A DNA stretch of 64,000 nt from Vulcanimicrobiota bacterium (GTDB taxonomy: Bacteria > Vulcanimicrobiota > Xenobia > Xenobiales > Xenobiaceae): assembly GCA_944322965.1 (NCBI GenBank), contig CALUQR010000006.1:38456-102455 (forward strand), in the 5' to 3' direction. The position numbers and the translations under genes were made by a program. Below, piece after piece: positions 2,730 through 37,183 of this stretch. Within the stretch, counting starts at the first letter, position 1; each line of letters opens with the position of its first letter. The notes under the pieces are model-generated. The model ran no database searches. It had not been told where the DNA came from and saw only the letters and a program-made list of their open reading frames with translations.

Positions 2730-3275
2730 ATGGACCTCACCCTCACCCCCTGGCGCCCCGACCTTTGTTGCCGCGATCTGAGCCAAGTACCCTTCGACAA
2801 GTTGGCGGAGCGCCAGATCGTCAATATCTGCTTAGATGTAGACAATACCTTAGCCCGCCGCGACTCCTGGCAGATAGAGCCTCAGCTTTTAGAGACTCTG
2901 CAAGGGGCCCTAAAAGCGGGCTTTATTCATAAACTCTGCCTCCTCTCCAATATCGGCTGGGGCAGTCGCCGTAAGCGTCGGGTCCAACAGATGGCCGCCC
3001 AACTGGGGACGGAATACTATTTTGCCGCCCGCTTTTGGGAACATAAGCCCCGCTCCCTCCCCTTCCGCCGGGCCTTGCATATGATGGAGGCCCAGCCTGC
3101 CCAGACGGCCATTATTGGCGACCAACTCTTTACCGATATTGCGGGCGGCAATAAGTTGGGACTCTATACGATCTTGGTGCGCCCCTTAGGCCCCGATCAC
3201 TGGTCGACCCGTCTCAGCGGGCGGCGTTTGCGGGAAGCGCGTATCCTCAGGGCTTTGGGCCTAGAGGGAACCTAG
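2730..3275 (+). CDS. HAD-superfamily IIIA phosphatase, YqeG-like
   Basis: DxDNTL motif I (CLDVDNTLA), followed by a C-terminal GDQLFTDI motif. Confidence 0.6.
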   Translation: MDLTLTPWRPDLCCRDLSQVPFDKLAERQIVNICLDVDNTLARRDSWQIEPQLLETLQGALKAGFIHKLCLLSNIGWGSRRKRRVQQMAAQLGTEYYFAARFWEHKPRSLPFRRALHMMEAQPAQTAIIGDQLFTDIAGGNKLGLYTILVRPLGPDHWSTRLSGRRLREARILRALGLEGT

Positions 3276-3381
3276 GCCTAGGGGGGACGCCCGGGGAGTA
3301 TTTGCGCCCGGTGGGTGATTTGTGCTTTAATTGGTAGCTATGAACCCTTTATACGCCCTCTCTAAAAGAGGTTGAGATCCC

Positions 3382-19690: not shown

Positions 19691-19735
19691 TGGCTGGGAC
19701 TTAACGCTCGGCCGTAAGTTAAGTTACCGCAGGAT

Positions 19736-19757
19736 TTAAGCTAATTCGGAATTAGGC
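19736..19757. repeat. Solo copy of the TAAGCTAATTCGGAATTAGG motif shared with the terminal repeats of the MITE-like element. It overlaps the stop codon of the cysteine desulfurase gene.
   Basis: taagctaattcggaat is identical at 19736 and 36830. Confidence 0.5.
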
Positions 19758-20863: not shown

Positions 20864-21059
20864 AGAGGGTACAGCCCTCCTCTTTAAAGAATTCGATCTG
20901 CTCTAAGAGATCTTCGGGGGTGGCGCCCAGCTCTTCGGCCAGACACTGCAGGCAGTAGAACTCGCGCACGTTGCGGCCGCGCAGTTTGCGATTTAAGCCC
21001 ACCTCGTTGCGGGTCAAAGGTTCGTGCCCGCAGGCGATACAGCGATACTTTTTAGCCAT
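20856..21059 (-). CDS. Small CxxC...CxxC zinc-ribbon protein (67 aa), possibly DUF2197/YlaI-like
   Basis: The sequence CIACGHEP...YCLQC. It begins 15 bp downstream of brxL and overlaps the desulfurase start. Confidence 0.45.
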   Translation of the reverse strand: MAKKYRCIACGHEPLTRNEVGLNRKLRGRNVREFYCLQCLAEELGATPEDLLEQIEFFKEEGCTLFG

Positions 21060-21074
21060 AATTGCGTTCCTAAG

Positions 21075-22547
21075 TTAGAAGTTAGAGATTAGCTCTTTAG
21101 AGCTGCGGAACTGGGGTTTGAGCTCTAAGGCGGGAACCCGTTTGCCGCGGTACTCGTTATCTAAGAGCCCCAGTTGGGTGACGATAGTTTGGCGCATCTC
21201 CATAGCCCTTTCCAGACAGTAGTGGCGGAAGAGCTCCCCGGGCACTTGGTTGGCCCGGCGCACGTGGGGGAAGAGCAGCTTGAGGTAGGCGGTGGCGATC
21301 CTCTTAATAGCCTCCGTATCGCGAGTATCGGCGGTCGCAGGCACTTCCAGGATCTCGTCTACTACGGCCCGGTAGGCGGTGTCGCTGCGCAATTCGTGCA
21401 TGATGGAGCAGAAATATTCGGAGTTTAAGGCCCAACCCGAGACCTTAATATTCTCGCGGATACGGGGTATATTCCAACCCTTAATAAAGCCGTGGAAGCG
21501 CTCTATGAGGGCCGACTCTTGGAAGATGGGGGGCACCTCTTGGAACATATTGGCCTGTCCGTCCTGGTCCATAATCTCTTTGCGCAAGTTGCCGCAGAGC
21601 ACTACTCCCGCTTCCGAGCGCCCGTGGTAATTGCCCACCGTAAATTGGCCCGACTCCATATACCCTTTGAGAGCGGCGCGCATCTCGTCGACGTCGGAGA
21701 AGGCGATAGTCTGCACCTCGTCTAAGACTACGAAATCGTGGCCGGAGATGAGGCCCTCCCGTTTGGTATTCATATCGTAGAACATCTTGGCCCGCGTCAT
21801 CTTTCCGCCGCTAGAGAGCCAGCCGAAGCGACTGATCTGACCGAAGAGGTAGGATTTGCCCGTCCCTTTGGGGGCCAGCTCGATGAGGTTGAGCCTCTTC
21901 TCCACAAAGGGCAAGAGGCGGGTAAGCATAGTCAACTTCTCTTCTAAGTTGAGGTAGCCCTCGGGGTTATAGTCGATAGCCCCTAAGAGGATATCGACCC
22001 ACTCTTCTAAGCTAAAATCTTCGCGGGCCTCTTGGAAATAGTCGAGCTCCACTCGGTAGGGGCAGAAATTCTTAAAGGAGCGCAAGAGGATCTTCCCGGG
22101 GTCCCGATCTTGGGCGGGTTGGTAGCCTAGCTCGACGATCCCCCAGGCCCCGCCCTCTTTGGTGAGGTCATGGGCCACTTCGTCCCAGACGTACTGCTCG
22201 ATGAGCGTCTCCCTAAAGCCCAGGCCGAACTCGGGCAAGGCGAAATTGACTTGGCCGCGGTTAATGTCGATATTAGTCTCGATCTTAGTGAGAAAGCGCA
22301 CCTCCTTATTCTCTAAGACTACCTGGGCCTTGAGGGCCTCCCAGTCGCTGCGGCGGGGCACGTGGGTGCGCACGAACTCCCGAAACTCCTCCTTATCGAA
22401 GTTGCCCTCGCTATCTTCGAAGCGCTGTAAGAGCCAGTCGCGCATAAAGGACGGCAAGCCCAAGGAACTAAAGAAGGCGCTCTCCTTAAGGTCCTTATAG
22501 AGGGCCATCTCCTCAAAATTATCGCGCAATTTGGCAACCGTATCCAT
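21075..22547 (-). CDS. brxL: BrxL-like P-loop protein (Lon-related ATPase) of a type 4 BREX operon
   Basis: The Walker A motif ELAPKGTGKSYLFGQISRFGW and its position after pglZ. At 490 aa it is shorter than type 1 BrxL. Confidence 0.5.
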   Translation of the reverse strand: MDTVAKLRDNFEEMALYKDLKESAFFSSLGLPSFMRDWLLQRFEDSEGNFDKEEFREFVRTHVPRRSDWEALKAQVVLENKEVRFLTKIETNIDINRGQVNFALPEFGLGFRETLIEQYVWDEVAHDLTKEGGAWGIVELGYQPAQDRDPGKILLRSFKNFCPYRVELDYFQEAREDFSLEEWVDILLGAIDYNPEGYLNLEEKLTMLTRLLPFVEKRLNLIELAPKGTGKSYLFGQISRFGWLSSGGKMTRAKMFYDMNTKREGLISGHDFVVLDEVQTIAFSDVDEMRAALKGYMESGQFTVGNYHGRSEAGVVLCGNLRKEIMDQDGQANMFQEVPPIFQESALIERFHGFIKGWNIPRIRENIKVSGWALNSEYFCSIMHELRSDTAYRAVVDEILEVPATADTRDTEAIKRIATAYLKLLFPHVRRANQVPGELFRHYCLERAMEMRQTIVTQLGLLDNEYRGKRVPALELKPQFRSSKELISNF

Positions 22548-22559
22548 CTCTCTCGCTCC

Positions 22560-24935
22560 CTAAAAATCGAACTCGCTATTCTGGGTCATCCCCTTCTTCT
22601 TACTCACTTGTATCTGCAACTCTTTTTGCAAGACTCCGCCCCGGTAGAGTTCCAGGGTGTAGGCAGCGGGGCCGGGCGGTTTCTCCCAGTAGGCTCGGTA
22701 GATACTGGGTTTTTCCTCTTGCAGGGGCAGGACTTCATCGTTCCAGCGCAGCTCTAAGTCGGGGGCGTTCGTCCAGGGTACTTGCAGATGCAAGGTTATC
22801 CCCTTCTTGCGGGAGTATTCCGCGCTGGGGGTCAAGAGCTCGATAGCGGGCAGACGCTCGGGGGGTAGGCTAGCCTTAGAGCTTAAGACTAGGAGGGGGA
22901 TGACTACCTCCTCTAGGGAGGCGCCCCCATGGACTTCCACTGAGGCCGCCCGGCCGCCCTTAAAGCGCTCGTAGTCGGCTAAGACCCAGTAGCCATTCTC
23001 CCGGCTGACATTCTCTAAATTGCAATCTTCCCACTCCGAGCAGGGGCAACAGCGCCCGGAATGGCGCCCCTTCTGGGCCATCTCATAACTGGCCTCTCGA
23101 CCATAGAGCACAGCCAGACGGGAGGCCCCGTGGTCGCTAGCTAAGAGCAGGCGCTGACACTGGCCCGACTCTAAGCGGCGGGCGCAATCTTGGACCACCC
23201 GGCGCAAGAGGCTAAGTTCCGCGGGCAGGTGGGTGGCGGCCCGACTCTCTTTAGAGAAGTCGTAATCGGCGTTGCCATGTTTGAGTTTATCCAGCTCCGA
23301 CTCTTTAACTTTAGGGCCCTGCCACTCTTCGAAGAAGTCTTTATTAGTAGAGGTCAGCGTAGGCAGATTGGCTCGCAAGATAGAGACTTGGCACTTTAAA
23401 TTAAACTCCCGGCAGAGGGCGACTAAGTAGGGCAAGTACTCTACCCCTAAGGCGTCTACCCAGTAAAGGCAGCTCCCGGGCTGATCGTATTTGGCGATAG
23501 GCCCCTCCTTAGTAGAGAGGCGATTATAGAGGCGCTCTATAGCCTGTTGGCGCACGATCTCTAAAAAGTCGGCAGGGATCGAATTTAAGACTTTGGCCTC
23601 CCGGTAAGTTTGGAAGTAGGAGTCCATAAAGTCTAAGCTCCGGTCCTCTAAGGGCAACTTGTAAAAAGGGGCCGCCCCATTTAAATAGCGCCCTAAGTCG
23701 GGGTAATGCTTCTCTACCAATTGGCGCTCGCTAACCCCCAAACTCCCCTTTTGGGCTAAGTAGCGCAGCCACTCGATGCGCTCTATAGGGGTAAGGTCGC
23801 TTAAATAATTCTGGTAATCCTGCTGGCGGCGCAGCTGGGGCAGCCAGGTTTGAGCCCAGTCGGGGGTCAGCTGGTCTAAGGGCGAGCGCTTTAAAAGCTC
23901 ATAGCGCTCCCAGAAGAGCTCCTCCCGGGCGGAGGCCTGCTTAGGGGCGGATTCTTCCCAGAGGGTAGACCATAAGCGCTCCCCCAAATCTTCGGGCGTC
24001 TGGGAGGCGCGCATTACCCTCTCCAAGTAGCGTTGGGGCTGGGGATTTAAGCCGTACTCTTCCTTTAAGCCTAGCCACAATTGCCAGCGCTCTTGGATTT
24101 TGGCCTCGCCCCCTAAGGAGCTAGCCACCCGGGCTAAGCGCTCGGGCAGGGAGAGGCCGCTAGGGCGCAGCTCAGCCTCTAAACCCTTAGAGAGGGCGTC
24201 TATTTCTACTTCCCGGTGGCGCTCTAAGAGCTTCTCCCAACGCTCCGGGCTGCCCCAACCCTCTTCCCAGCGCATTAAGGGCCCTAAGCGCTCTTTAAAG
24301 ACCGCCCAGGCGGAATCTAAGGAGCGGATCTTGAGGCTAGCTTGGCTCCAGGGGATGGCGCTCTGGTAGTCCAGGCGGCGACTATCGCCCGGGCGCCACT
24401 CCTCTAGGGCGTAGAGGAGATTTTTTAAACCTTGGTAGCAATTGGAGCTAGGGGCCCAGCCCAGATCTTGCCAGCGCACGATCTCTAGCTCTAGTTGGGG
24501 GTTCCACTCCTCTAAGATATGGAGGTAAGGCTTAAAGCGCGGGTCGCGCTGGGCCGCCTCCTCCAAAAAGCGCTGCCGCCCCCGCCAGAGGAAGATCAGT
24601 TGCTGCTGTGGCTCTAAGGAGAGGCGCTCCTGGCGCTCTAAGAGCTCTTGCAGCCCCTCCCGATAGCCGCGCAGGGCGGCCCACTCCCCGCAGCCCACCA
24701 CTAAGATCTGGGCCCTAGGATTCTCCGCCAACTCCTGGCGCAGCGCCCGCCACAAGCGCTCAAAGTTGGGGATCTTGTCGGGATGGGGACAGTAGTCGGA
24801 GAGTCGCCAGGTGGTAAAACCCTCGCCAGCTAGGCTCTCGCGGGTCGCCCTCCACTCGGCCCCCACTACTAACCAGTGGGGCCGTCCCCCGCCGTAGGCG
24901 GGGGGCGCCGGTGCGCAATAAGAGTCCATCTCCAA
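22560..24935 (-). CDS. pglZ: PglZ-domain protein (alkaline-phosphatase superfamily) of BREX
   Basis: The C-terminal region carries YWVDALGVEYLPYL ... LLLASDHGASRL, the TSDHG-like PglZ signature. It is flanked by brxC and brxL. Confidence 0.6.
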   Translation of the reverse strand: MEMDSYCAPAPPAYGGGRPHWLVVGAEWRATRESLAGEGFTTWRLSDYCPHPDKIPNFERLWRALRQELAENPRAQILVVGCGEWAALRGYREGLQELLERQERLSLEPQQQLIFLWRGRQRFLEEAAQRDPRFKPYLHILEEWNPQLELEIVRWQDLGWAPSSNCYQGLKNLLYALEEWRPGDSRRLDYQSAIPWSQASLKIRSLDSAWAVFKERLGPLMRWEEGWGSPERWEKLLERHREVEIDALSKGLEAELRPSGLSLPERLARVASSLGGEAKIQERWQLWLGLKEEYGLNPQPQRYLERVMRASQTPEDLGERLWSTLWEESAPKQASAREELFWERYELLKRSPLDQLTPDWAQTWLPQLRRQQDYQNYLSDLTPIERIEWLRYLAQKGSLGVSERQLVEKHYPDLGRYLNGAAPFYKLPLEDRSLDFMDSYFQTYREAKVLNSIPADFLEIVRQQAIERLYNRLSTKEGPIAKYDQPGSCLYWVDALGVEYLPYLVALCREFNLKCQVSILRANLPTLTSTNKDFFEEWQGPKVKESELDKLKHGNADYDFSKESRAATHLPAELSLLRRVVQDCARRLESGQCQRLLLASDHGASRLAVLYGREASYEMAQKGRHSGRCCPCSEWEDCNLENVSRENGYWVLADYERFKGGRAASVEVHGGASLEEVVIPLLVLSSKASLPPERLPAIELLTPSAEYSRKKGITLHLQVPWTNAPDLELRWNDEVLPLQEEKPSIYRAYWEKPPGPAAYTLELYRGGVLQKELQIQVSKKKGMTQNSEFDF

Positions 24936-24956
24936 CCTCCCTTAAAGCCTGCTTAG

Positions 24957-27900
24957 TTAAAAGGGTTTATCGATTAGGGCGATCCCCAATTCCACATCGT
25001 CTTTAATGACATCCAGTAAGAGCGTTTTGAGCACCTCCGGGGGCAGCTCGTCTAAGCGGCGGCTGAGGCGGGGCAGCCCCGTCTCCTTATATTCCGCTTC
25101 GGCCAGCTCCTTAATGGCGGGCAACATCTGGGGTTCGGTCCAGTCGTAGACCGGCGCCTTCATCTTCTTAGCTAAGCTCTCGCAGAAGCTATGGGAGGAG
25201 GGCACGAAACTATGGTAATGGCCCGCCACCCGCTGCCGGAACTGGAGTTTAGCCCGGGGCAGGTCGTTCATTAAGCCAAAGAGCGAGCTCTTCTCCAGCC
25301 ACTCCAAGATGCGCTTGGCCTCCTCTTCCCCTAAGGAGGATTGGGAGTCGTTTAAAACTCGGAAGGCGGATTCCGAGATCTCGCGCTCCTCTTGGGGCAC
25401 TAAGTAGCGGATGGGGATGAGGTTTTTTTGCGACCATTCCCGAGGATTAGGGGAGCCGCTCTTCTCTTGCCACAGGCGTTGGATGCGCCCTTGCAAGCTC
25501 TTGCGCCGCTGGGAGGCGGCCAATTTTAAAACCTGCTTTTGGGCGGAATCGAGGGAGCCGCTCGAGATATTGAGGTGGCTAGCCCGCAACTGGGCGAAGA
25601 CCTCGCCCACCGAGTCGTCGTCTAAGCCCTGGAGCTGGGTCTTATAGAGGCTCTTAAAGGAGTCTAACTCGTTGCCAAAGAGCTCCCCTAACTTCTGACC
25701 CTCCTCCTGCAAAGCGCCCAGCCACTGCTTGCGCACTAGGTCGGAGTTATAATCCCGGTAACCCTTACATAAGCGGTCTAAGCGATCGACTAAGCCCGGG
25801 CTGAGGGCCCCGCTCTCTAAGCTCGTTAAGGTGGAGAAGGGCAAGCTGAGCTCGGAGAGGCGCTTACTGAGCTCGTTCATAGCCTCCTGGAGCCCACCCT
25901 TGGGACCTTGCCCTAAGAGATTCGTCAGACGCCAGAGGAGCTCTAACTCATCCCCTACCCCGGAGATCGTATCTTGGCCTATCTCCTTAGTCCAGGAGTA
26001 GGCCATGTCCGTCGAGAAGGCCGATTGCAGGCGCTCCTGGAGCTTTTTAGGCTCCCAACCCAATTGGGCCGTCAGCTTATTTAAGCGCCCCTCCTGGAAT
26101 TTATCTAAGAAGTCGCGCAAAGCTTGCAGGGCCTTATCCTTACCCACCGCCTCCCGCAGACGGCTAGCCCACTCCTGGCCCCGCTCTTGGTAGAGCCGGC
26201 CCAACTCTTGGGCTTTGGGGCGGGCGGAGGCCGGGCCCTCCTTAGAGATCTCCCAGAAGAGTTGCAAACCTTGGACCACCTGGGGATCGTCTAAGCGCTC
26301 CCAGACCATCCATAAGGGCCAGACCCGCTCCTTTAAGGCCGCCCCTAAACGCTTCTGCCAGCTGGAGAAGTCGGACTCGTTGAGCTTAAAACTCCACACA
26401 TAAGAGGCCAACTTCTTAAAGCTGACCATCTCCGGCGACTCTCGCACCAGGGTGACCTTATTCTTATCGTTCCCGCGCACGAGGTTATTGAGCTGGTCCT
26501 GGAGCTTCCCGATATCCATAACGCCCCCGGCCCCCGCCCGATCGGCGTAACTATATTTCGGGTCCTGGTACTCCTTTAAGAGGAAGCCTAAAAGGAAGCC
26601 GTAGAGGTTATTGGGCCTAAAGCAGGCCTCCTTAACTAGATAATTCCAGACCTCTTGCCAGCCGATGTGGCCGTTAGAGCCTAGATTTTTCTCCATCAGC
26701 TCTTCTAAATGGGCCTTCAATTGGGAGATGGGCAGAACCTTAAGTTGGGGGACCTGCCAATAATTGGGGACGCTCCACACCTCCCCTAAGCCCAGGCGCT
26801 TTTCGATCTCCGCCATCTCTCCCTTAGGCTGGGCGGGGGCCTCTAAGCCGGCCCGAATGAAGCGGGAGGGGCTCAAGTTGAGCCAGCTATCTTTGAGCCG
26901 CTCATTTAAATCGAATAAGGGGTAAGAGGATGAGGCGCTCAAGAGGCGCTTTAGCTCTTCGCAGAGGGTATTTAAGGTAGGATACTTCTGCCCCGGTTTC
27001 TTTAACTTAGAGCCATAGAGGCGGAAGGGCCCCTCCGCCAATTTGGAGAGCCAAACCTGCTCGAGGAGACTCTCCGCCTTCTTGCGACTCTCCTCCGCCT
27101 GGCTGCGGTCCTTGCTACTATAGAGCGAGGCGTAGGCCATGCCCTCAATATAGTCGCCAAAATTCTTGGGCGAGAGCAAGGTGGAGGTGAGATCTACTAA
27201 GACGGTCTGGCCCCCGCCCTCCTGTTCCCAGTCGACCTTATCCAAAAGATCCTCCAATTGGCGGCTCTCCCCTTCGTCTTTAGCTACTACTAACCCCCAC
27301 TTGAGCGGACTCTTGCGCTCTAAGAGGCGCTTCAACTGGCGACCAAAGTCGGAGACGGTCAAGAGTTCAGGAGTATCTAAACGCTGGGCCAGGGCCTTCC
27401 CTAAAGCCTCGCCGCTCATCTCTAAGAGGTGGTGCTCTTTAAGATACTTACTGGCTAAGTTGGAGGTAGTAATACTCTTAGCCAGGCGCTCTTTGATCTT
27501 CTCTAACTCGATCTCGTCGCCCACCCCTAAGGCCACCACGTAGCAGTAATCGTTACTAGAGATAGACCGATCCTTAGCGATAACGTGTTTCTCGCGCAGC
27601 TCCTCTAAGCTCTTAGCTACGCAATCGTTGGCTAGACCCTCCCCCACGAAGGCCCACTCTAAGTGTTCCTGGGTGGTCTCTAAGAGCTTCACTTGGTTAT
27701 TGCAGGCCCTATTGACGGCCAACATAATTAAGAGAGCTTGCAAGACCCGCCCCGCCTCCGGACTCAGGTGGCGAGCGTAGCGCTTATAAGTACCCAAGAT
27801 GCGGTTGGCGTCTGAGGTCAGGTCCTCTTTTTTATATTCGGTAAAGTACTGCCAAAGCAGGTCCACGGTCAGTAAGGGGCGGTCCCCGTAGGGGCCGTAG

Positions 27901-29156
27901 GTGTGGATATACCACTGGAAGGCGTAACTTTTGGGCTCCTCTAAGCGCAAGAAGTCAAATAAGCTGCGCTGGTTCGATTGGAAGGTAGTAGCTACAAACT
28001 TTAAGACCAGGGCCGCCAAGGGGTGGAGGGGCAAGATTTTAAATAGGGTCTCATGATCTTCTAGACGGGACTCAGCCCCTATAGCCTCTACCACCTTCTG
28101 CAGGCGCTGGCGCAGGATCTTGATATCTTCATTAAACTCTGAGGCCTTCTCAGGGAGAAGGTGCAAGGCGTTGGCGATTAAGTGGAAGGCCACATTTTCG
28201 GGCATATCGATGCCCACCCGTTCGAAGCGGTCTTGGATGGGATTGCCCTGGCTCTCTTCGCTAGCCGCGTGGTGGGTGACGATAGTCAGGAAGAAGTTGC
28301 CCTCTTGGGCCAGGGCGGCGATCTTCTGTAAGCTATCTAAGCTCTTGGCGTTGCGATTCATGTAGGAGGAGAATTCGTCCCACAGAAAGACCAGCTGGAT
28401 CCCATTGCGGGCGATGACCTCTCGCATCCAGGCCGTCAGACTGTCGACGCTGGGGGCCATAAAGATCTCCTCCTCTTGGCGCAAGAGCTCCACCAGGTTG
28501 CGCACTAAGGAACCCGTATCCTCCCCTTGGCGCAGATCATCTAAGATTTCTGCGGCCGTACTCTGGCTAAAGAGGTTGCACCAGGGAGACTGGCTCAGAT
28601 GGCGCTCTACGATAGACGCGTAGGGGGGATCGCTCAACTTTTCGATCAGGCGCTCTCGGCTGGTAGCATTCCCTAAGTAGGAGCAGCCCGCCTCTCGGAG
28701 GGCCTGGGAGATAGACTCCTCAAAGGCCAGACAGAGGTTAGTCGTATCGCCAATTTCACCCGAGCCGTAGCGGAAGGCGATCACCATCTTCTGGCGGCTC
28801 TTAAGGCCTAAGAACTTTTGTAAGAGGTCCTTACGCCCCTCCTTTAACTCCTGGAAGCGATCCCAATACTCTTGGACTTCCTGGGCGGGCCGCTCTAAGA
28901 TGCGGCGCAGGGCTAAAAGGCACTGGGACTTACCCGTCCCGTAGGGACCGTAGATCCACAGCCCCTTAGTGGAGGAGCCATTTAAGATCTGCTCGGCCTT
29001 CTCCAAGAGCTTAATGAAGGTGGGGTGGGGGTAAGTATTCTTCCACTCCGCCCCTCTCTTAATAGCCCCCAGGTCGATACAGGGGAAATAGTTCTTTTGT
29101 AGCTGGAAGTATTGGCTGTAAGTCTCCGTCTCCGGAGCGGCGAGCACGGCGGGCAT
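24957..29156 (-). CDS. brxC: BrxC/PglY-like large P-loop NTPase
   Basis: The N-terminal Walker A motif LWIYGPYGTGKSQCLLAL. The 1399-aa size and the position between brxP and pglZ also fit. Confidence 0.55.
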   Translation of the reverse strand: MPAVLAAPETETYSQYFQLQKNYFPCIDLGAIKRGAEWKNTYPHPTFIKLLEKAEQILNGSSTKGLWIYGPYGTGKSQCLLALRRILERPAQEVQEYWDRFQELKEGRKDLLQKFLGLKSRQKMVIAFRYGSGEIGDTTNLCLAFEESISQALREAGCSYLGNATSRERLIEKLSDPPYASIVERHLSQSPWCNLFSQSTAAEILDDLRQGEDTGSLVRNLVELLRQEEEIFMAPSVDSLTAWMREVIARNGIQLVFLWDEFSSYMNRNAKSLDSLQKIAALAQEGNFFLTIVTHHAASEESQGNPIQDRFERVGIDMPENVAFHLIANALHLLPEKASEFNEDIKILRQRLQKVVEAIGAESRLEDHETLFKILPLHPLAALVLKFVATTFQSNQRSLFDFLRLEEPKSYAFQWYIHTYGPYGDRPLLTVDLLWQYFTEYKKEDLTSDANRILGTYKRYARHLSPEAGRVLQALLIMLAVNRACNNQVKLLETTQEHLEWAFVGEGLANDCVAKSLEELREKHVIAKDRSISSNDYCYVVALGVGDEIELEKIKERLAKSITTSNLASKYLKEHHLLEMSGEALGKALAQRLDTPELLTVSDFGRQLKRLLERKSPLKWGLVVAKDEGESRQLEDLLDKVDWEQEGGGQTVLVDLTSTLLSPKNFGDYIEGMAYASLYSSKDRSQAEESRKKAESLLEQVWLSKLAEGPFRLYGSKLKKPGQKYPTLNTLCEELKRLLSASSSYPLFDLNERLKDSWLNLSPSRFIRAGLEAPAQPKGEMAEIEKRLGLGEVWSVPNYWQVPQLKVLPISQLKAHLEELMEKNLGSNGHIGWQEVWNYLVKEACFRPNNLYGFLLGFLLKEYQDPKYSYADRAGAGGVMDIGKLQDQLNNLVRGNDKNKVTLVRESPEMVSFKKLASYVWSFKLNESDFSSWQKRLGAALKERVWPLWMVWERLDDPQVVQGLQLFWEISKEGPASARPKAQELGRLYQERGQEWASRLREAVGKDKALQALRDFLDKFQEGRLNKLTAQLGWEPKKLQERLQSAFSTDMAYSWTKEIGQDTISGVGDELELLWRLTNLLGQGPKGGLQEAMNELSKRLSELSLPFSTLTSLESGALSPGLVDRLDRLCKGYRDYNSDLVRKQWLGALQEEGQKLGELFGNELDSFKSLYKTQLQGLDDDSVGEVFAQLRASHLNISSGSLDSAQKQVLKLAASQRRKSLQGRIQRLWQEKSGSPNPREWSQKNLIPIRYLVPQEEREISESAFRVLNDSQSSLGEEEAKRILEWLEKSSLFGLMNDLPRAKLQFRQRVAGHYHSFVPSSHSFCESLAKKMKAPVYDWTEPQMLPAIKELAEAEYKETGLPRLSRRLDELPPEVLKTLLLDVIKDDVELGIALIDKPF

Positions 29157-29162
29157 GGGGGG

Positions 29163-31592
29163 CTATACCTCCTGGATGAGCTCTAGGACCTGAGCCGAGG
29201 ACTGGGGTCCCAAATTGATAGAGTCGAGGTCATGTGTGAAGCTGACCTGAATATATTCGGGGTAACGGGCGTTTAATCCCAGTAAGGGGGCTTTAAGTTG
29301 AGCGGGAGTCGCCCCCCACAAGCGCAAGGGACTGACCGCCTGGCGCTCGGCGGTAGGATCGGCCAACTGCCCCAAATTGAAGGCCCGATACTCGCCCCCC
29401 ATAGCCTCCGCAAATTTAAATAGGCTGTAGAGTAAGACTAAAGGCGACCCCCACTTAGGAGCGGTGCGCACCAAATACTCCTCTTTGCCCTTCTTCTCTA
29501 CCCTGCCCCAATTGAGAACCGTCCCTAAGGGGGTGGCAGCTAGGCGTTTGAAAGCCTTAACGATAGAGGCCGCATCCTTATCGCTAATCCCCAGCTCTTT
29601 TAGAGCCCCCACCAACTCTTCCCGCGCATAACGGTGTTTCAGATCCATAAAGTTGGTGTACCAGGCCATTTGGGGGTTAGTGTAGACTAAATTAGTCAAA
29701 ATCAACCCCAAAGCGTTCTCTGAATCCCAGCCCAAACGAGAGATAAATTCCGCAAATTCAGTGAAGGTGTTGCGACCATTTAATCCAGCATCTCTCAAAA
29801 AACGCCGGAAGAAATCAAACATATTGGAACCTAGGCTATGTTCCGTATAGAACCTTTGCTTAAGTGCAAAGAATGAGCGCAACCATTCCGTCTTTGGTGC
29901 ATGGTCAGCAAAAGTGTTGAGGCTGCTTTTTACCATTTTATGAGCTCCTGTTCCAGGTGGGAAATGCAAGGATTTATAGGCCAGACAATTGCCTGGAATA
30001 TCATAACAATCATGACATTGACGACAGTTCTCTATACGAACTTCGCCCTCATGAAAACTTATGGCCCCATAAGGGCAAGTAATTTCACAAGTTTGACATG
30101 CAATACAATGAGCCGTTTTGCGTAAAACAGCCCGTAAGGAAGTAATAAATTTAGGAGATGATTTGACAGTGTGCGGGTCAACCGTAATTTTAAAACCCAA
30201 TGCAGTCTTCTCAAATTGTACTTCAAACGTCTCTTTGGGAGTCATCAGTGTCAGCGAATTGCCAAGTAAAAAGACGTCTCCAATAGTCTTAAACCATTGT
30301 CGCCAGTCGGATAGTGGCTTAACTAACTCAAAGACTAGAGTTCCATTTCGCTCACATTCTATGATGTGTGACTTGTTTTTGGCTAGTGATCGCCCATTAC
30401 GACGCAATTGCCAGCCACCGCCAACCAAATAGCTTAGTTTTAGCTTCTTTTGTTCTTCAACCGTAGTATCTGCATCTTTTTCGGGGACATCATAGCTATT
30501 ACGCACTATCTTGGCGAAACGTTCGACCTTATCAGTATAGTTAGCCCAACGGAAATAATTCGCCAGGTTACCTGTCATGGGGCACAATAAACACCCAGCT
30601 CTAGAGTTACCCTTCTTATAGCCAGCATTAATCGTTAAGTTTCTAGAGAATATGTAAAGCCAAATTTCGGCTGAATTCCATTCTAAGAGAGGATTGAAGC
30701 TGTATTGCCCCTTTTGTTTTTTGCTGTAATTGTCGTAAGTGTATTCTGAGCGGCTTAGGCTTTCTGCACGTCGTACGCCCACAAAGTCCAATCCCTTATA
30801 GTTGGGCTTACCGCTCAAACGGCGAAGAGTAAGTGTCTGCGGCGTACTCTTATGCACGCAACAACACCAGCGCGCCACCTTGGCAGGAGGAGCGAACTTA
30901 CGCCAAGATGCTTCAGGAGTACATTGGGCTTTTGTTCGTTCAAAAGATATGCCCTCATTACGACATTTACGCTCATCTTGACGAACAGCCGCCAAGGTGT
31001 CAGGAAATTCCATTCCTGTATCGGCGAAGAGAACAACAAAACTATTGGCAGGTAACGCTGATTTTACAAGGTCTAACAGGACGATACTGTCCTTGCCTCC
31101 CGAATAAGCCACATGGAATATATCGACTATTGATTGGTATCTTTCATACGCATCCAATATTTTTTGAATCGTATCCGCAACTAAGACTTCTAAAAGTTGA
31201 GAGTTAGCAGCGAGCATTGCCCCCATATCAATAGGTTTTAGAATTTGTTCCTTAAATACGCAGGAACTCATTTCAGCGTCAGAGAACAAGACGCCCTGCC
31301 CAGAGCTCGTTTCCCTACTTTCATCCCAATTGACATCAAAGAAAGTCACCGTTGGTTTTTCGTAAAGATTACCCCCACGCAGCTGAGCAATCAGTTGCCC
31401 CCGATAGTAATACTTGCTCCCTTCTGCCCACATATAAGGAACTGATTCATTAGAATCATATTTCCAACGAGAATTAAAACCCAAGAGATCCATTTCTTGG
31501 GCCCATACTGGTCTAGGCTCCTTAGAGAAGGCTAACGGCAAATCACGCAAGATGATTCCGCCGGTAGCGGGATCGTAGGCATAAGAATACAT
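29163..31592 (-). CDS. brxP: BrxP-like protein: a PAPS-reductase/PP-loop domain (SGGKDS) plus a 4Fe-4S ferredoxin-type motif (CIACQTCEITCP) and a C-terminal extension
   Basis: The PP-loop HVAYSGGKDSIVLLDLV and the CxxCxxCxxxCP cluster motif. DndC-like chemistry, in the type 4 BREX gene order brxP-brxC-pglZ-brxL. Confidence 0.65.
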   Translation of the reverse strand: MYSYAYDPATGGIILRDLPLAFSKEPRPVWAQEMDLLGFNSRWKYDSNESVPYMWAEGSKYYYRGQLIAQLRGGNLYEKPTVTFFDVNWDESRETSSGQGVLFSDAEMSSCVFKEQILKPIDMGAMLAANSQLLEVLVADTIQKILDAYERYQSIVDIFHVAYSGGKDSIVLLDLVKSALPANSFVVLFADTGMEFPDTLAAVRQDERKCRNEGISFERTKAQCTPEASWRKFAPPAKVARWCCCVHKSTPQTLTLRRLSGKPNYKGLDFVGVRRAESLSRSEYTYDNYSKKQKGQYSFNPLLEWNSAEIWLYIFSRNLTINAGYKKGNSRAGCLLCPMTGNLANYFRWANYTDKVERFAKIVRNSYDVPEKDADTTVEEQKKLKLSYLVGGGWQLRRNGRSLAKNKSHIIECERNGTLVFELVKPLSDWRQWFKTIGDVFLLGNSLTLMTPKETFEVQFEKTALGFKITVDPHTVKSSPKFITSLRAVLRKTAHCIACQTCEITCPYGAISFHEGEVRIENCRQCHDCYDIPGNCLAYKSLHFPPGTGAHKMVKSSLNTFADHAPKTEWLRSFFALKQRFYTEHSLGSNMFDFFRRFLRDAGLNGRNTFTEFAEFISRLGWDSENALGLILTNLVYTNPQMAWYTNFMDLKHRYAREELVGALKELGISDKDAASIVKAFKRLAATPLGTVLNWGRVEKKGKEEYLVRTAPKWGSPLVLLYSLFKFAEAMGGEYRAFNLGQLADPTAERQAVSPLRLWGATPAQLKAPLLGLNARYPEYIQVSFTHDLDSINLGPQSSAQVLELIQEV

Positions 31593-31638
31593 GGGACCTG
31601 GTACACATGACGAGGCATGCTTAATATATCATCAAGTT

Positions 31639-34600
31639 TTAGCTGCTGATTTTCCTCAGCAAACTAAGCCCGCGCTCTTCGCTCAGTCTCCCCAAGTATC
31701 CCCCCTCAATTAGATACTCTGAAATAGCCTCCATAGTTGGCCTAACTTTAGCTCGCTTCAAAACGACAACTAGCGCATCTTCGTAATCTATTTGGCACTC
31801 TTTCCGCATCAGTAAGCCAAGAATTTTTACTGTCCATTGCCTATGAGAAGGCAAAAGTAATTTAAAACGTTTACTAAATCGATAACAGTAGGAGCTCAAT
31901 AGATACTCATTCCAGGTATAACCGCAATAAGGTAAAGATAAGAATAAACTATTGGGAATATCTCCCACAGATAAGAATTCCGGCAAAATTTCATCTAGAA
32001 TACGATCAATTTCATCAACCTGAAAATCTACCATATTGGGCTGCACAAACTCTTTAGCATCAATGCGAACTAAGTATTGATAGCCATAGTCGAAGGCCAA
32101 TTGTCTAACCGCGCCCGGCTTTTCAGGAGCATTCAGAGCTTCACACCCCAGATCGTTTAGTTCATCCAAACTAACGATTTTCTCTCCCAAATCCTTACAC
32201 AACTGGCGCATCATATCCATACCGGAGATAGTATCCTGACCAAAACGATTAATAAAAGCGCTACTCCCTTTGCGTTGGTACTTGTCGGCCAAATACTTGA
32301 AGTAGAGCCCCTTGATCCAGGCCATTTCGGTCAGGCGCGAGTCGTTTAAGTAGTGCCACTCTTCTAAGGGTAAGGAGCTTAAAGTGAAGCTACCCTCCTT
32401 ATCTAAACCCTCTTCAATTATCCTTACCATCCGCTCCACTTCCTCTGGCGGCAGTTCGAAATAATTTAAGTTGAGATAACTGGCGCAGCGGCTGGCGGTG
32501 CTAGTCTCATTTAAAACTAACTCCTCGCCCTCGCCGATGGCTAATTTAATATCCGCTTCCCCTAAGTAGGGCAGGCGCTCCTGCAGTTGGGGTAAGGTCA
32601 ATAAACTCTCCCCGCCCCAGTGGGCCCGCACCTCCCCTAAGAGTAAGCGCTCTAAATTCTTTTCCTGAGGCTCTAAAGTATAAAAATACTCCTTCTGGCC
32701 CTTAGTAGTCTTAGTAATTAACCGACCAGGCAAGTTGAGGCGCTCTAAGAGACTGGGCCAAAGCTCTACCTGGCGCAAGTTCAACTCCTCTAAATTGTGG
32801 CGCGCCCCTAAACGCTCTAAGTTAAAGACCCTCCAATCGCGCTGGCGAGCCTCCTCCAAGATCTTCTCTAACCTCTTCTCTAACTGCGGGTAATAAAAAT
32901 AATAAGAGACGCCCTCCGCACTCTCTAAAGGTAAACCGCAACGCTCTAAAAGGTCCCTATAACCCTCCTCACTCAAAGCCAAAAGGGCGTCCCGCTGCGC
33001 GTGGCCACCATAGTTAGCGCGCACCTTGTACAAAAACTTCTTATAACCCAAACGGTCGCCCATCAAAATGCCCCCGCTCTGCTCCAAAGCCACCTGACGC
33101 AAAGCCTCGCCCAAAGGACCCCAAGAGACCGCCCTACACCTAACCGGCTCTAACTTCTCTCTTACCAGAGGCCCTTTCTCGGGGGCCGGTTGTGACTCTA
33201 ACCTATGTACTGCATCGGGGGCCAGAGGCCCATTCGTCGGCCCAGGTTGCACCTCTAACTCATTTACTGCCTCAGACACAGGTTCCGGCTCTAACCTAGG
33301 GTCTACCTCGGCTGCAGGCTCAATCTCTACCTCTTCCGCAGGCCCAGGCTCGGACTCCACCTCAGCCCCAACCTCAGCCTCTCCCGCAGGCACAACCTCA
33401 ACCGCGGGGGCCGGCTCTAGCTCCACCTCCTCTGGGGTTAGGTAGATAGTTACTAACTGGGGATCTAAATTGAGCTCCCTAAAGAGGCGCTGGAAGGTCT
33501 GTAAGCTCCAGCCCCGCTCCTCTTTGAGCCGCCACCAGTAGCCGCCAATCTCAAAGACGCCCTCCACCTCGCCCTCGGAACCCTTCTCCTCTAAACGAGC
33601 GCCCATAGCCCTCAAAGCCCCCTCCAAACGCTGAGGACCACAACTAAAATCTAACTTGCGCAATAAAGACAACTGCCACGAGATCCAACCCGCAGACTCT
33701 AACTCTACCCTGCCCCCCTCGCCCCGCCACTCCCAAGCCGCCGGCTCATACCCATAAAAAGCCTGCGCCCCCTCCCCCAGGGCCAGGGCCAAAGGCCCTT
33801 TCGTCGGGGCCGGTTTTGCCCCTAACTCAGATACTGCCTCGGGGGCAGGCTCCACTCTAACCTCAGTTACCGGAGACGCCTTCGTCGGGGCCGGTTGCGC
33901 CCCTAACTCCGACTCAGGCTCGGGCTCTTCCGCGGGCGCTACTTCCGCCTCCACCTCAGCATCTTCCGCGGGCCATACTTCCGACTCGGGCGCAGGCTCA
34001 GTCTCAACCTCAGGCGCTACCTCGGACACCGGATCCGACTCTGCCTCAGGCGCCACCTCAGCCTCCACCTCTTCCGCGAGCCCTACCTCGGGTTCTATCT
34101 CTCCTACAGTTGTATCTGCAATATAATCCGCAATCTGAGAGGCGGGGTAGAGGTAAATTTTTACCTGGCGCAAGTCGATCCCTAAATGCTTAAAGAGGGG
34201 GCGGAAAGCCTTGATACTCCACTTATAATCTTCCCGGCCTACAAAGACGCGCTCCCCAATTACTACGTGGGGCTCTGAGGAGGCCTCTCTCATAAAATCG
34301 ATCCTCCACTTTAAGGGGATCTCTACCCGCTCTAAAAGCTTAACTAAGCGCCAAGGATCAAATTCCTCTAATAGCTGACTAACCAGAGAAACCTGCCAAG
34401 CGCTCCAGCTGGGCTGGGAGAGCTCCTCCCCTAAATGGAACTTACCCTCACACTCCCAAGCGATAGGGAGATAACCCTCAAAATCGGTTACCAAATTGAA
34501 AGGGGTCAAATAGAAGGGCTGTCTATCCGCCGCCGCAACTTCCGCTGGGGGTGTCTCTATGCTTGCATCTACAACACTATCCACAGGCGGACTACTCTCT

Positions 34601-36753
34601 ACCGGGGCTGCGGGCGTAGGCGCGGGCTGGGGCAGGTGGTTAGAGATGGCGATCCGCTCAAAAGAGATCCCTAAATAACGGGCGCAGGCTTTAATGGCGT
34701 CCAAAACGCTAGCCTGGTCTTCATATAAGAGCAAATAGAGATCGGAATCTATGGCCACATACTTATGGCCTGGATAGCGACCCTCCATCTCCGCTGAGGA
34801 TCTAGTCAAGGCCAAATGGCAACGGTTATAGAGATCCTCTAAAGGACGCTCCCCTAAAGAGGTATGGACTAATAACCAACCCACAAAGCGATGTAAAAGC
34901 TCGGCCCAGCTGGGAGGGGTAATCTCTATCCCCTCCTCCCCAATCTGCAACCAACGCGGACCGCTAGGCGGAGCCGCTTTAACCTCCCCAACCCCAGGCT
35001 CTTCCTCTGGACTCAGGCCCGGAGCTAAATGGATCTTTAACCCCTCCTCTAAGAGCCAAGCCCCCTCCTGGGGAGCAGCCTCCCTAGGCGCATAATAAAG
35101 TTGGGGGCGCAACCCCAAAGCCCGACAACACTTACTGAGCGTATCTACTACTCGCTGGGGCTCGCTCTCTAAGAGCAGGTAAGCGCAGTCGGCTAAGACG
35201 ATGTAGGCCTTACCCGGATGATCCTTAGCCATCCCGGCGGCGCTGGCGGTCACCACTATCCCCCAGTCGGCCTCGTGCCTATAGAGCGCGGTCACATTGC
35301 TAGCTAACTTCTTCTCATAGAGCCAGCGCACAAAATTGACATAGAGCTGAGGCCAAGTGGGCGGAGAGACCGTCACCCTATCAAAACCTATCCCCAAAGC
35401 GGTAGGACGCAGACTCCCCAAATCAGCCTTGGGTCTCGCCGTAGTTGTAGGCTCAACCTTTTCCGGAGCTTTAATCTCCTCCATAACCCCCTGAGAACCG
35501 CCCACCAGGCCCATAATTTCCGCCAACTCCCGCTCCGGATCGCCCCCCGCCCCCGGACTAGGCTGGACCTGGGGAAGCGACCGCCCGGGAGGGGGCGCCT
35601 GAGCGGGCGGCGCCGACTGGATGGGCGGAGCGGACTGCGTTGGCAAAGTAGACCGAGCGGGAGGGGTAGGCCGGGCTGGCGGAACGGACTGGGTCTTAGG
35701 CTGGGCCGCAGGGGCTACGGAAATGCCGCCCCCTAAGCTAATCATGGTCTGACTGAGATCTAAATTGGAGACGTCTACCACCCCCTGCCCTGCCTTAGCA
35801 GTAGTAGCAGTAGAATTAGCCGCGTTGGCGGTAGCAATAGCGGCGGGTAGGGTCTTAGCCTTAGGCGCTGGCTGAGGGGCGGCCGCTTCCAAGCAGTAGA
35901 AGCTCAAGTCGCCCGGGTTCTTCCCTAAGGCGGTACTCAGAGCGCGCAAGTTGGCCAAGATCTGCTGCGGCTGGTTGTAAATGGGTAAGTATAAGCCCGG
36001 ACGGACCCCTAAGACGGGCGTGCGGTAAGGGGCTTTAATATACAACTCTACCTTACTGCCCATTAAGAAGCCATTTTGCTGGAGACAGAGGACGCAGGCC
36101 TCCGGGGTGAGTTTGGACATCAAAATTAAGAGGGCGATGCGGTAAGCCTCCGACCACCTCTCCTGAGGGACGGGATAATAAAAATTCTTAAAGCGCACGT
36201 AAAGCGGCGCCTTACTAGCCAACTGGGAGGCCGACTGCAGACTATTGATCCCAATCGGCCACAAGCTATCCCCACTGCTAGGAGGCCTAGCCTCTAAAAG
36301 CGCCCCCTTATCCAACTTAGCCCGCAAAGAGGCCCAACTATCCACCTTCTCCGGACTAGGCTTAACCGCCCTAGAGGTTGCAGTCGTCGCCGCAGGGGAC
36401 GCCGCAGGAGTCGCCGGCACGGAGGTGGGCTGCACCTGCGCAGGCGCAGGCTGAGGCTCTGGACGCTGATCGACTACCGGAGGGACTATAACTAGATCCT
36501 CCCCCAAACGCCAACCGGCCCGCAAAGTCTGGTACTGGGTATCGTAGACCTGCTTTAAGCCGCTAGCCAAAAGCAAGGACTCCAAAGCCTCCGCCTCTTG
36601 AATGTAAGTAACCCGCATTAGAGGCTGACACTCCCGTGCCTGATGCTGGACCTTAGCCAGATGGACCGCTAACCTCGCGCACAACTCCCGCCCCAAAGCC
36701 GCTAACCGCTCCAACTTCGCCAACTCCGCCCCCGAAATCGCCCTGCGCTCCAT
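31639..36753 (-). CDS. Giant (1704 aa) hypothetical protein with internally duplicated ~110-aa modules of two types, separated by acidic E/P/A/V-rich linkers, and a non-repetitive ~650-aa C-terminal region. It lies 46 bp upstream of brxP and is co-directional with it.
   Basis: Repeated blocks: PPxWxxLxxxFVxWL...G+xY+...YLLL...LG, and W..SL..L...D..........F.IG....WS...F..LF..L..D.QV.IYL.P. No recognisable catalytic motif. Confidence 0.6.
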   Translation of the reverse strand: MERRAISGAELAKLERLAALGRELCARLAVHLAKVQHQARECQPLMRVTYIQEAEALESLLLASGLKQVYDTQYQTLRAGWRLGEDLVIVPPVVDQRPEPQPAPAQVQPTSVPATPAASPAATTATSRAVKPSPEKVDSWASLRAKLDKGALLEARPPSSGDSLWPIGINSLQSASQLASKAPLYVRFKNFYYPVPQERWSEAYRIALLILMSKLTPEACVLCLQQNGFLMGSKVELYIKAPYRTPVLGVRPGLYLPIYNQPQQILANLRALSTALGKNPGDLSFYCLEAAAPQPAPKAKTLPAAIATANAANSTATTAKAGQGVVDVSNLDLSQTMISLGGGISVAPAAQPKTQSVPPARPTPPARSTLPTQSAPPIQSAPPAQAPPPGRSLPQVQPSPGAGGDPERELAEIMGLVGGSQGVMEEIKAPEKVEPTTTARPKADLGSLRPTALGIGFDRVTVSPPTWPQLYVNFVRWLYEKKLASNVTALYRHEADWGIVVTASAAGMAKDHPGKAYIVLADCAYLLLESEPQRVVDTLSKCCRALGLRPQLYYAPREAAPQEGAWLLEEGLKIHLAPGLSPEEEPGVGEVKAAPPSGPRWLQIGEEGIEITPPSWAELLHRFVGWLLVHTSLGERPLEDLYNRCHLALTRSSAEMEGRYPGHKYVAIDSDLYLLLYEDQASVLDAIKACARYLGISFERIAISNHLPQPAPTPAAPVESSPPVDSVVDASIETPPAEVAAADRQPFYLTPFNLVTDFEGYLPIAWECEGKFHLGEELSQPSWSAWQVSLVSQLLEEFDPWRLVKLLERVEIPLKWRIDFMREASSEPHVVIGERVFVGREDYKWSIKAFRPLFKHLGIDLRQVKIYLYPASQIADYIADTTVGEIEPEVGLAEEVEAEVAPEAESDPVSEVAPEVETEPAPESEVWPAEDAEVEAEVAPAEEPEPESELGAQPAPTKASPVTEVRVEPAPEAVSELGAKPAPTKGPLALALGEGAQAFYGYEPAAWEWRGEGGRVELESAGWISWQLSLLRKLDFSCGPQRLEGALRAMGARLEEKGSEGEVEGVFEIGGYWWRLKEERGWSLQTFQRLFRELNLDPQLVTIYLTPEEVELEPAPAVEVVPAGEAEVGAEVESEPGPAEEVEIEPAAEVDPRLEPEPVSEAVNELEVQPGPTNGPLAPDAVHRLESQPAPEKGPLVREKLEPVRCRAVSWGPLGEALRQVALEQSGGILMGDRLGYKKFLYKVRANYGGHAQRDALLALSEEGYRDLLERCGLPLESAEGVSYYFYYPQLEKRLEKILEEARQRDWRVFNLERLGARHNLEELNLRQVELWPSLLERLNLPGRLITKTTKGQKEYFYTLEPQEKNLERLLLGEVRAHWGGESLLTLPQLQERLPYLGEADIKLAIGEGEELVLNETSTASRCASYLNLNYFELPPEEVERMVRIIEEGLDKEGSFTLSSLPLEEWHYLNDSRLTEMAWIKGLYFKYLADKYQRKGSSAFINRFGQDTISGMDMMRQLCKDLGEKIVSLDELNDLGCEALNAPEKPGAVRQLAFDYGYQYLVRIDAKEFVQPNMVDFQVDEIDRILDEILPEFLSVGDIPNSLFLSLPYCGYTWNEYLLSSYCYRFSKRFKLLLPSHRQWTVKILGLLMRKECQIDYEDALVVVLKRAKVRPTMEAISEYLIEGGYLGRLSEERGLSLLRKISS

Positions 36754-36829
36754 CCCTGCTAAGACCTATCCCTTAAAAATAGTTATCCCAAAAATACCCC
36801 ATTTAACATTAAGGTAACTTTTCCTTCTT

Positions 36830-37183
36830 TAAGCTAATTCGGAATGCTTAATGCGTAATGCGGAATTAAGAGGCTCTTGTTAATGGCCCAACAGATCCGG
36901 CAATAACTTGGCCTATGAGAGGATCGCTGGCAGTTCCACTGCCTTTTTGGCGCTTCGGTTATGGCGCGCCCCCCGGCCGCACCGCACCATGACGATTTTC
37001 CCTCTAGCTAAGCTACCTTCGGAACCAGCCAACAACTAAGTCCTTGCTCTCTCGCCCCTAAGTCATCGCCAAAACGAAAGTTAGAGCCACAACCTCCCTC
37101 CCGCCGCACTACCCCAATTACGCATTAAGCATTCGTAATTCCGAATTACGCATTCCTAATTCCGAATTACGAATTCCGCATTG
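36830..37183. repeat. MITE-like element copy 1 (~350 bp). Its terminal inverted repeats are built from TAATTCGGAAT / TACGCATTA motifs. The internal part contains a ggcagttccactgcc hairpin.
   Basis: The left end taagctaattcggaatgcttaatgcgtaatgcggaattaag is the reverse complement of the right end ...acgcattaagcattcgtaattccgaattacgcattcc.... The internal sequence is homologous to 62340-62660. Confidence 0.6.

Follow-up and report, generated by a model that had tools for sequence, protein, structure and literature searches.

A low-GC segment spanning brxP and the end of its upstream gene is exchanged between strains in a predicted type 4 BREX island

We analysed a 64,000-nucleotide stretch of a Vulcanimicrobiota bacterium (contig CALUQR010000006.1 of assembly GCA_944322965.1; hereafter the window, in whose coordinates all positions are given). 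It carries an island that, judged from its gene content, is a type 4 bacteriophage exclusion (BREX) system, a predicted phage defence of the phosphorothioate type. Within the island, a patch of low GC content covers most of brxP and the 3' end of a 'giant' gene that lies upstream of it. Alignment with related strains supports this patch as a replaceable segment of 2.5-2.9 kb, and its allelic replacement was observed directly across strains. That the patch is an allelic replacement cassette in a type 4 BREX system is, taken as a whole, the best explanation, and one that we hold with considerable confidence.

A block of low GC content lies across two genes

Between positions 29650 and 32450 the GC content is 0.434, against a mean of 0.587 (SD 0.024) for 2.8-kb windows outside the patch (n = 39), corresponding to z = -6.4. 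Of all 2.8-kb windows in the 64 kb, the one beginning at 29651 has the lowest GC. Fitting two change points by maximum likelihood placed the edges at 29640 and 32480, with GC of 0.433 inside and 0.563 outside and a log-likelihood gain of 73.7.

29640-32480, no strand: low-GC block, from maximum-likelihood change points, GC 0.433

The drop sits at synonymous (third codon) positions, and GC at second codon positions (GC2) is alike inside and outside the patch. GC at third codon positions (GC3) is 0.41 in brxP codons 1-640 and 0.32-0.48 in codons 1501-1704 of the giant gene (the last ~200), compared with 0.66 in the last 125 codons of brxP and 0.72-0.75 in brxC, pglZ, brxL and the flanking chromosomal genes. 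A shoulder of ~50% GC at 32480-33000 is common to all alleles. Both base composition (z = -6.4) and GC3 (0.41 against 0.73) therefore deviate from the host, as is expected of horizontally acquired DNA.

An earlier note, made from the sequence alone, had described an AT-rich patch at about 29.65-32.45 kb. This observation is confirmed and its coordinates are accurate: the sliding-window and codon-level checks that it proposed were both run, and the first returned a significant dip. Its estimate of GC in the mid-40s against about 60% holds for the inside (43.4%), whereas the immediate flanks lie at 56-59%. It was also right that the patch joins the 5' part of brxP to the 3' end of the giant gene, but the share of brxP is ~80% (residues 1 to ~650 of 809) rather than two-thirds.

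Could the patch simply reflect a peculiarity of these domains, in their amino-acid content or in the control of their expression, without any transfer or exchange? GC2 is similar on either side of the edges, and brxP is on average slightly GC-poorer than brxC, its variable part differing by -0.022 ± 0.028 over 63 loci. However, the difference here is -0.12, a comparable dip is absent in 60 of the 63 other loci, the drop falls at third codon positions and strains differ by replacement of the whole block, so that we consider this explanation highly improbable. Low GC as a general property of brxP was rejected on the same 63-locus comparison with brxC. The family mean GC of brxP is 0.42, equal to the patch, and the genomes that carry the family are, taken together, low in GC.

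Three alleles share one backbone

The nearest relatives of BrxP in an index of 5.8 billion proteins are only 60% and 54% identical. Both nonetheless lie in an identical chromosomal context, with the same M91-peptidase genes on one side and the same polyunsaturated fatty acid (PUFA)-synthase-like gene on the other. When related-strain contigs are aligned with the window, nucleotide identity is 99-100% on both sides and 30-70% within the block. Base-level mapping resolved three alleles, A (the window), B and C, and two nested variable intervals:

29556-32428, minus strand: maximal variable cassette, allele A against allele C (contigs L009-L012 and L248-L252), from first mismatches; 30-68% identical inside
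29681-32182, minus strand: inner variable block, allele A against allele B (contigs L005-L008 and L253-L259), from the base-level mismatch map

Allele C differs from both A and B over the whole of 29556-32428, and A equals B in the outer shells at 29556-29680 and 32183-32428. Because the A/B and C blocks are nested, at least two exchange events with different crossovers must have occurred. The backgrounds of A and C are 99.7% identical, so the exchange is recent. All three alleles have low GC inside the block (GC 0.40-0.45, GC3 0.38-0.43), and the breakpoints fall inside both open reading frames (ORFs), within ~85 bp of the GC change points. Near-identical flanks around a diverged block within one population, the pattern looked for in a specificity-module swap, are thus present in three allelic forms. 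The earlier note had read the patch as a recombinational module swap with its boundaries inside both genes, and the strain alignments bear out both points; they add that the exchanges are nested and at least two in number.

A chimeric assembly of two organisms would also join unlike compositions, and some contigs from mixed samples do end inside the cassette (L018 at 31107 and L023 at 32568). However, 23 contigs, obtained from several samples in two studies, contain allele A with both junctions, and in L001 the identity is 100% across 22.4 kb. Alleles B and C were each recovered repeatedly with the same junctions, and the ORFs are intact across both junctions in all alleles, indicating in-frame crossovers. 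Since all three alleles recur with the same junctions, the block is not an assembly chimera, and we give this possibility practically no weight.

A defence locus with a hypervariable segment could likewise have been diversified in a programmed way, whether by a diversity-generating retroelement or by a site-specific shufflon or inversion. Against this, the block is not bounded by inverted repeats, and no second, silent version of it was found in the 64-kb window. The ORFs of the island are the partner (the giant gene), brxP, brxC, pglZ, brxL, a zinc-finger ORF and a desulfurase, with no recombinase or reverse transcriptase among them, and the divergence is spread over 2.5-2.9 kb and all codon positions. 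Such a mechanism is very improbable here.

Four further look-ups through BrxC variants gave only alleles B and C and no fourth allele. Calls of a 693-residue BrxP were considered as truncations and rejected: they reflect start-codon choices, and their DNA is identical to the intact 819-residue allele B.

Domains carried by the cassette

29163-31592, minus strand: brxP, 809 residues; PADLOC BrxP 3.1e-215 (residues 1-801), Pfam PAPS_reduct 1.4e-27 (residues 161-338), AlphaFold model
29163-29555, minus strand: constant 3' end of brxP (residues 680-809, the second and third winged helices of DUF4007); 100% identical in A, B and C, GC3 0.66, host-like
31639-36753, minus strand: giant gene, 1704 residues; no Pfam, NCBIfam or PADLOC match
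31642-33051, minus strand: partner domain within the giant gene, from phmmer homologs, adjacency to brxP and a structure model

Domain limits in BrxP were taken from an AlphaFold model with a predicted local distance difference test (pLDDT) score of 72.8, together with the published architecture and names (PMC12839542). The protein is predicted to comprise an N-terminal beta domain, a 3'-phosphoadenosine 5'-phosphosulfate (PAPS) reductase domain (residues ~120-340), an alpha+beta domain resembling Mog1p/PsbP (410-500) and cysteine clusters (496-536), followed by DUF4007. The last consists of a helix-turn-helix (HTH1, 568-648) and two winged helix-turn-helix domains (wHTH2, 654-709; wHTH3, 717-808).

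The cassette covers BrxP residues 1-637/679, that is, all domains save the last two winged helices of DUF4007. One of its 3' crossovers lies at residue 637, where HTH1 ends, and the other at residue 679, inside wHTH2; the latter, which separates A from C, coincides with the family-conserved KAFKRLAATPLG motif. HTH1 and the variable alpha+beta domain are accordingly inside the block and wHTH2-3 are constant. Protein identity between alleles is 45-51% over the variable part of BrxP and is unevenly distributed: 36-43% in residues 1-150, 57-70% in the PAPS-reductase core (151-345), 26-35% in residues 346-500 and 56-65% in residues 501-656, rising over residues 657-809 to 100% between A and B and 90% against C. 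The cassette also takes in the last 180-260 residues of the giant protein, in which residues 1-1440 are 97-100% identical between alleles and residues 1523-1704 are 30-38% identical, with conserved motifs still recognisable. The earlier note had listed the PAPS-reductase/Fe-S part of BrxP and the upstream C-terminus as the swapped content. Both are indeed exchanged, but the list was incomplete, as the N-terminal domain, the alpha+beta domain and HTH1 of DUF4007 move with them.

brxP is exchanged in other lineages

A comparison of 160 reference loci gave five independent pairs in which BrxC is at least 97% and the partner 93-100% identical, while the variable part of BrxP is only 68-84% identical. 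The reverse discordance was never seen among these loci. The divergent blocks of the five pairs, in nucleotides of brxP, are:

~600-2050: L057/L159
~600-2050: L061/L096
~300-2240: L083/L145
~900-1925: L166/L173, with flanks 100% identical
~1000-2090: L094/L163

The core common to the swaps is BrxP residues ~330-640. The 3' edge always lies at residues ~640-745, as in the window, and the 5' edge floats.

Mosaics comparable to the window are also present in three GC-rich hosts. In Selenomonas sputigena ATCC 33150 (L036, NZ_CP194411; 8500-12400) and in a Desulfobulbus metagenome-assembled genome (MAG; L026, 2800-7300), separate low-GC patches cover the partner C-terminus and brxP residues ~200-650, with GC recovering at residues ~630-700. 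In a Succiniclasticum MAG (L031; 7100-14000) the low-GC block runs on 1.7 kb into brxC. Because the family is low in GC throughout, the swaps in the five other lineages are compositionally invisible, and the window is a compositionally visible case of a general phenomenon of brxP exchange.

A conserved partner is encoded upstream of brxP

The giant gene is separated from brxP by a 46-bp spacer. Its product consists of a repeat- and linker-rich N-terminal region of 1234 residues followed by a conserved C-terminal BrxP-partner domain of 470 residues, and none of its 1704 residues matched a model in Pfam, NCBIfam or PADLOC. A word-index protein search with the partner domain returned nothing from the single sequence and two proteins from a profile, and was replaced by phmmer and scans of loci. 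Exhaustive phmmer found 994 homologs of residues 1235-1704, in proteins of 321-1582 residues, where the domain is always C-terminal; among those homologs that were scanned, no Pfam family covered it.

Of 80 type 4 BREX loci representing species, 74 have, directly upstream of brxP and on the same strand, an ORF that a profile of the domain recognises. In the other six the sequence upstream is shorter than 300 bp, and without them the count is 74 of 74. Once metagenome loci are added, 139 loci offer over 1.5 kb of sequence upstream of brxP, and in 137 of these the partner is the adjacent upstream gene. What the earlier note called the C-terminal domain of the upstream protein is swapped as it proposed, and can be redefined as a conserved BrxP partner that almost every type 4 BREX locus encodes. 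A protein present upstream in ~99% of loci and missing from the Pfam, NCBIfam and PADLOC models deserves to be flagged.

The domain (~460-470 residues) was modelled with a pLDDT of 86.7 as about six winged-helix-like units (helix-helix-helix-strand-strand) in tandem. Its best Foldseek matches in the PDB are tandem winged-helix arrays, namely UFL1, the C-terminus of SelB, ESCRT-II and ScpB. It carries the motifs W-G..LPYIP, MVRVD..FV, FPxCGxxWNxxLLESYCxRFSK and NSxNxG. Profile comparison by hhalign found no relation to DUF4007 (probability <1%), to the N-terminus of BrxP or to its alpha+beta domain.

Term searches of PMC12914056 and PMC12839542 found no description of the upstream partner. It may correspond to the Bacteroides salyersiae gene described as 'unknown Bs02795', which is dispensable for phosphorothioate (PT) synthesis. 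Its inclusion in the swap here may reflect co-adaptation with BrxP, or simply the position of the upstream crossover.

Residues 1-1234 of the giant gene (33052-36753) are built of repeated ~100-residue modules and linkers rich in P, A and E, with DNA repeats at 33169-34101. The length of the protein depends on the strain, from 1669 to 1778 residues, and in L010 it is split into 704 and 1020 residues.

Mechanism and origin of the cassettes

On our reading, recombination with diverged brxP loci has replaced a contiguous segment of this putative PT-writing island, by crossovers at brief runs of conserved sequence within the two neighbouring genes. What is exchanged comprises the last 180-260 residues of the partner, the 46-bp spacer and BrxP residues 1-637/679, including the PAPS-reductase-type sulfurtransferase, whereas the last two winged helices of BrxP, BrxC, PglZ, BrxL and the desulfurase are constant and host-like in composition. 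The cassettes have the GC typical of the BrxP family (~42%) and an un-ameliorated GC3 of ~0.40, and most likely came recently, in at least two nested events, from a low-GC pool of alleles into this 58%-GC lineage. It is probably through the constant wHTH2-3 that BrxP remains matched to BrxC and the other backbone proteins, and the swapped module may change the phosphorothioated DNA motif and so re-key self-marking, as exchange of target recognition domains (TRDs) does in Type I restriction-modification systems and in PglX.

Several observations weigh against this account. No donor was found: the best identity to the cassette was 49-55% across the protein index, 185,579 species genomes, JGI metagenomes and IMG/VR, and in the search for a donor or a fourth allele the closest sequences were 49% identical in JGI metagenomes and 47% in IMG/VR. 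In a neighbour-joining tree A, B and C form one group with long branches, which would also fit an old allele pool private to the lineage. Other lineages swap brxP without the partner gene, and the inclusion of the partner here may be a chance of crossover. Finally, only one of the three helix-turn-helix units of DUF4007 lies wholly inside the cassette.

The tree and the missing donor would both suit an old balanced polymorphism that evolved in place under diversifying (frequency-dependent) selection, its low GC arising from AT-biased mutation in a non-recombining segment; so would the nearly equal limits and equal GC of the three alleles. Identities of 45-51%, however, imply time enough to drift towards the composition of the host, and all three nevertheless have GC3 of 0.38-0.43. 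The composition of the cassette equals the norm of the BrxP family, and A and B are, in raw distance, no closer to each other than to unrelated BrxPs. The 99.7% identity of the A and C backgrounds, moreover, makes the exchange recent. Evolution in place is in our view improbable. The nearest neighbours of the variable and constant parts differ, though all are distant (BrxC and PglZ are ~30% identical to sampled systems). We favour recent import of the cassettes from an unsampled low-GC pool because alleles so divergent could not have kept GC3 of ~0.40 through long residence at GC3 of ~0.73; such a foreign origin is likely, judging from composition.

A possible switch of phosphorothioation motif

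PT writing needs no more than BrxP and BrxC with the desulfurase, which together reproduce the dinucleotide pattern of the native system (PMC12914056). According to the same source, PT motifs differ between species and a foreign BrxC does not complement; this 2026 study tested BrxC as the determinant of the motif, without an answer. The triple winged helix of SspB/DUF4007 is a predicted recognition component (PMC10853773, PMC12839542). As BrxC is invariant among the three alleles, the swapped BrxP module would be the best candidate for the motif determinant. By analogy, exchange of the cassette may switch the phosphorothioation motif, a proposal for which we judge the case evenly balanced.

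The swap could be real and yet be selected for another reason, namely escape from phage anti-defence proteins that bind BrxP or its partner. The most variable parts of BrxP, the N-terminal domain (36-43%) and the Mog1p/PsbP-like domain (26-35%), are not obvious DNA readers, and the C-terminus of the partner co-varies here. Yet the swapped core in six lineages always reaches the HTH region of DUF4007, with a tightly conserved 3' edge, and we know of no inhibitor of BrxP. Motifs also differ between type 4 systems (PMC12914056). Escape from inhibitors in place of a motif change seems to us unlikely, but the two selective forces are compatible, and escape may be an alternative or an additional driver.

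More tentatively, residues ~330-640 of BrxP may form the PT specificity module and the upstream protein may be an unrecognised core component whose C-terminal half would have to match BrxP, for example as a reader or docking subunit. If the core is the specificity module, the A/B/C series on one backbone would offer a direct route to map and re-program PT motif specificity. The locus is in effect a natural experiment, with three BrxP modules on an identical BrxC/PglZ/BrxL backbone. At least five other lineages exchange the same module and do so with a fixed 3' boundary, which narrows down where the candidate specificity region lies; the prediction that follows is that the two C-terminal winged helices of BrxP need to remain matched to the backbone.

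The island and its surroundings

24957-29156, minus strand: brxC (pglY/SspC-like ATPase), constant backbone; PADLOC BrxC 1.5e-167; 99% identical between alleles
22560-24935, minus strand: pglZ; PADLOC PglZ 4e-78
21075-22547, minus strand: brxL; Pfam BrxL_ATPase 2.4e-113, PADLOC 4.8e-217
20856-21059, minus strand: 67-residue CxxC...CxxC zinc-finger ORF, from translation; a component described for type 4 BREX in PMC12839542
19757-20863, minus strand: DndA/SspA-like cysteine desulfurase; Pfam Aminotran_5 6.3e-73, PADLOC SspA 1.5e-119
19735-19752, plus strand: 18-nt direct repeat, left copy; perfect repeat bracketing the island
36828-36845, plus strand: 18-nt direct repeat, right copy, within 7-mer repeat arrays

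The assignment to type 4 BREX is made from gene content. BrxP is a PAPS-reductase protein fused to DUF4007, its modelled C-terminus consisting of an HTH and two wHTH domains, and brxC, pglZ and brxL adjoin brxP on the same (minus) strand, with 7-22 bp between neighbouring genes. Scans with Pfam, NCBIfam and PADLOC found no PglX methyltransferase, and no protein of the island matched a methyltransferase family. The stretch at ~19705-37151 is wholly absent from the strain contig L021, an insertion/deletion polymorphism; because the whole stretch is missing there, the giant gene and the BREX genes can be taken as one island of ~17.4 kb.

The perfect direct repeat that brackets the island, TTTAAGCTAATTCGGAAT, is set in arrays of 7-mers (AATTCGG/AATGCGG/AATGCGT, 36835-37182). 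The empty site (L021:400-1441) holds two repeat-bounded elements of ~450 bp and two small ORFs. Beside the island, tandem paralogs (~70% nucleotide identity) at 37257-39020 and 39208-40929 encode RTX-repeat (HemolysinCabind) and Peptidase_M91 domains. On its other side, at 5018-12436 and 12542-19690, lie giant PUFA-synthase/polyketide-like genes (2472 and 2382 residues) with ketosynthase (KS), acyltransferase (AT), ketoreductase (KR) and FabA domains.

Internal deletions were observed in brxC, of 1.24 kb (brxC nucleotides 2808-4048) in L010 and L016 and of ~150 bp in L008; some members of the population may carry a decaying system. Small patches of brxC also differ in which alleles agree: B and C are the same and differ from A at 28523-28622, and A and C are the same and differ from B at 27523-27622. 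This indicates ongoing recombination between strains across the backbone of the island.

Comparison with known systems

The type 4 BREX system of Bacteroides salyersiae (PMC12914056; survey in PMC12839542) has the same order, brxP-brxC-pglZ-brxL, with a cysteine desulfurase and a small zinc-finger ORF, and BrxP of type 4 systems has the same architecture as that of the window (PAPS reductase, alpha+beta domain, 4Fe-4S-type cysteines and DUF4007). The window differs in that its BrxC and PglZ are only ~30% identical to those of sampled type 4 systems and in the repeat-rich extension of 1234 residues carried by its partner. In searches by term, neither paper appears to describe strains of one population that differ by replacement of a BrxP module. 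DUF4007, at the C-terminus of BrxP, is the same module as the triple winged helices of SspB, DndG and FokI type (PMC10853773). Every swap has its 3' crossover inside DUF4007, either past HTH1 or in wHTH2. Winged helices in tandem also make up the upstream partner, but hhalign detected no profile similarity between it and DUF4007.

Exchange of specificity modules in defence loci is a known kind of event. What appears to be new is its occurrence in a predicted PT-writing BrxP, the fixed boundary and the universal upstream partner. TRD exchange in HsdS of Type I restriction-modification systems and in PglX of BREX type 1 replaces an internal module by recombination in conserved flanks. The window resembles it in having near-identical loci, a discrete swapped module and several alleles in one species. 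In contrast, the enzyme of the window would, by homology, write a backbone phosphorothioate rather than a methyl group, and its module is far larger, with a catalytic domain and parts of two genes but only part of the predicted DNA-binding array. The change of specificity is, in the window, putative. In the 'domain movement' of Helicobacter pylori, restriction-modification genes become mosaic through homologous recombination between diverged alleles. The nested breakpoints, several alleles and conserved backbone genes of the window are alike; unlike those of H. pylori, its alleles depart strongly from the base composition of the host, which points to a pool outside the lineage.

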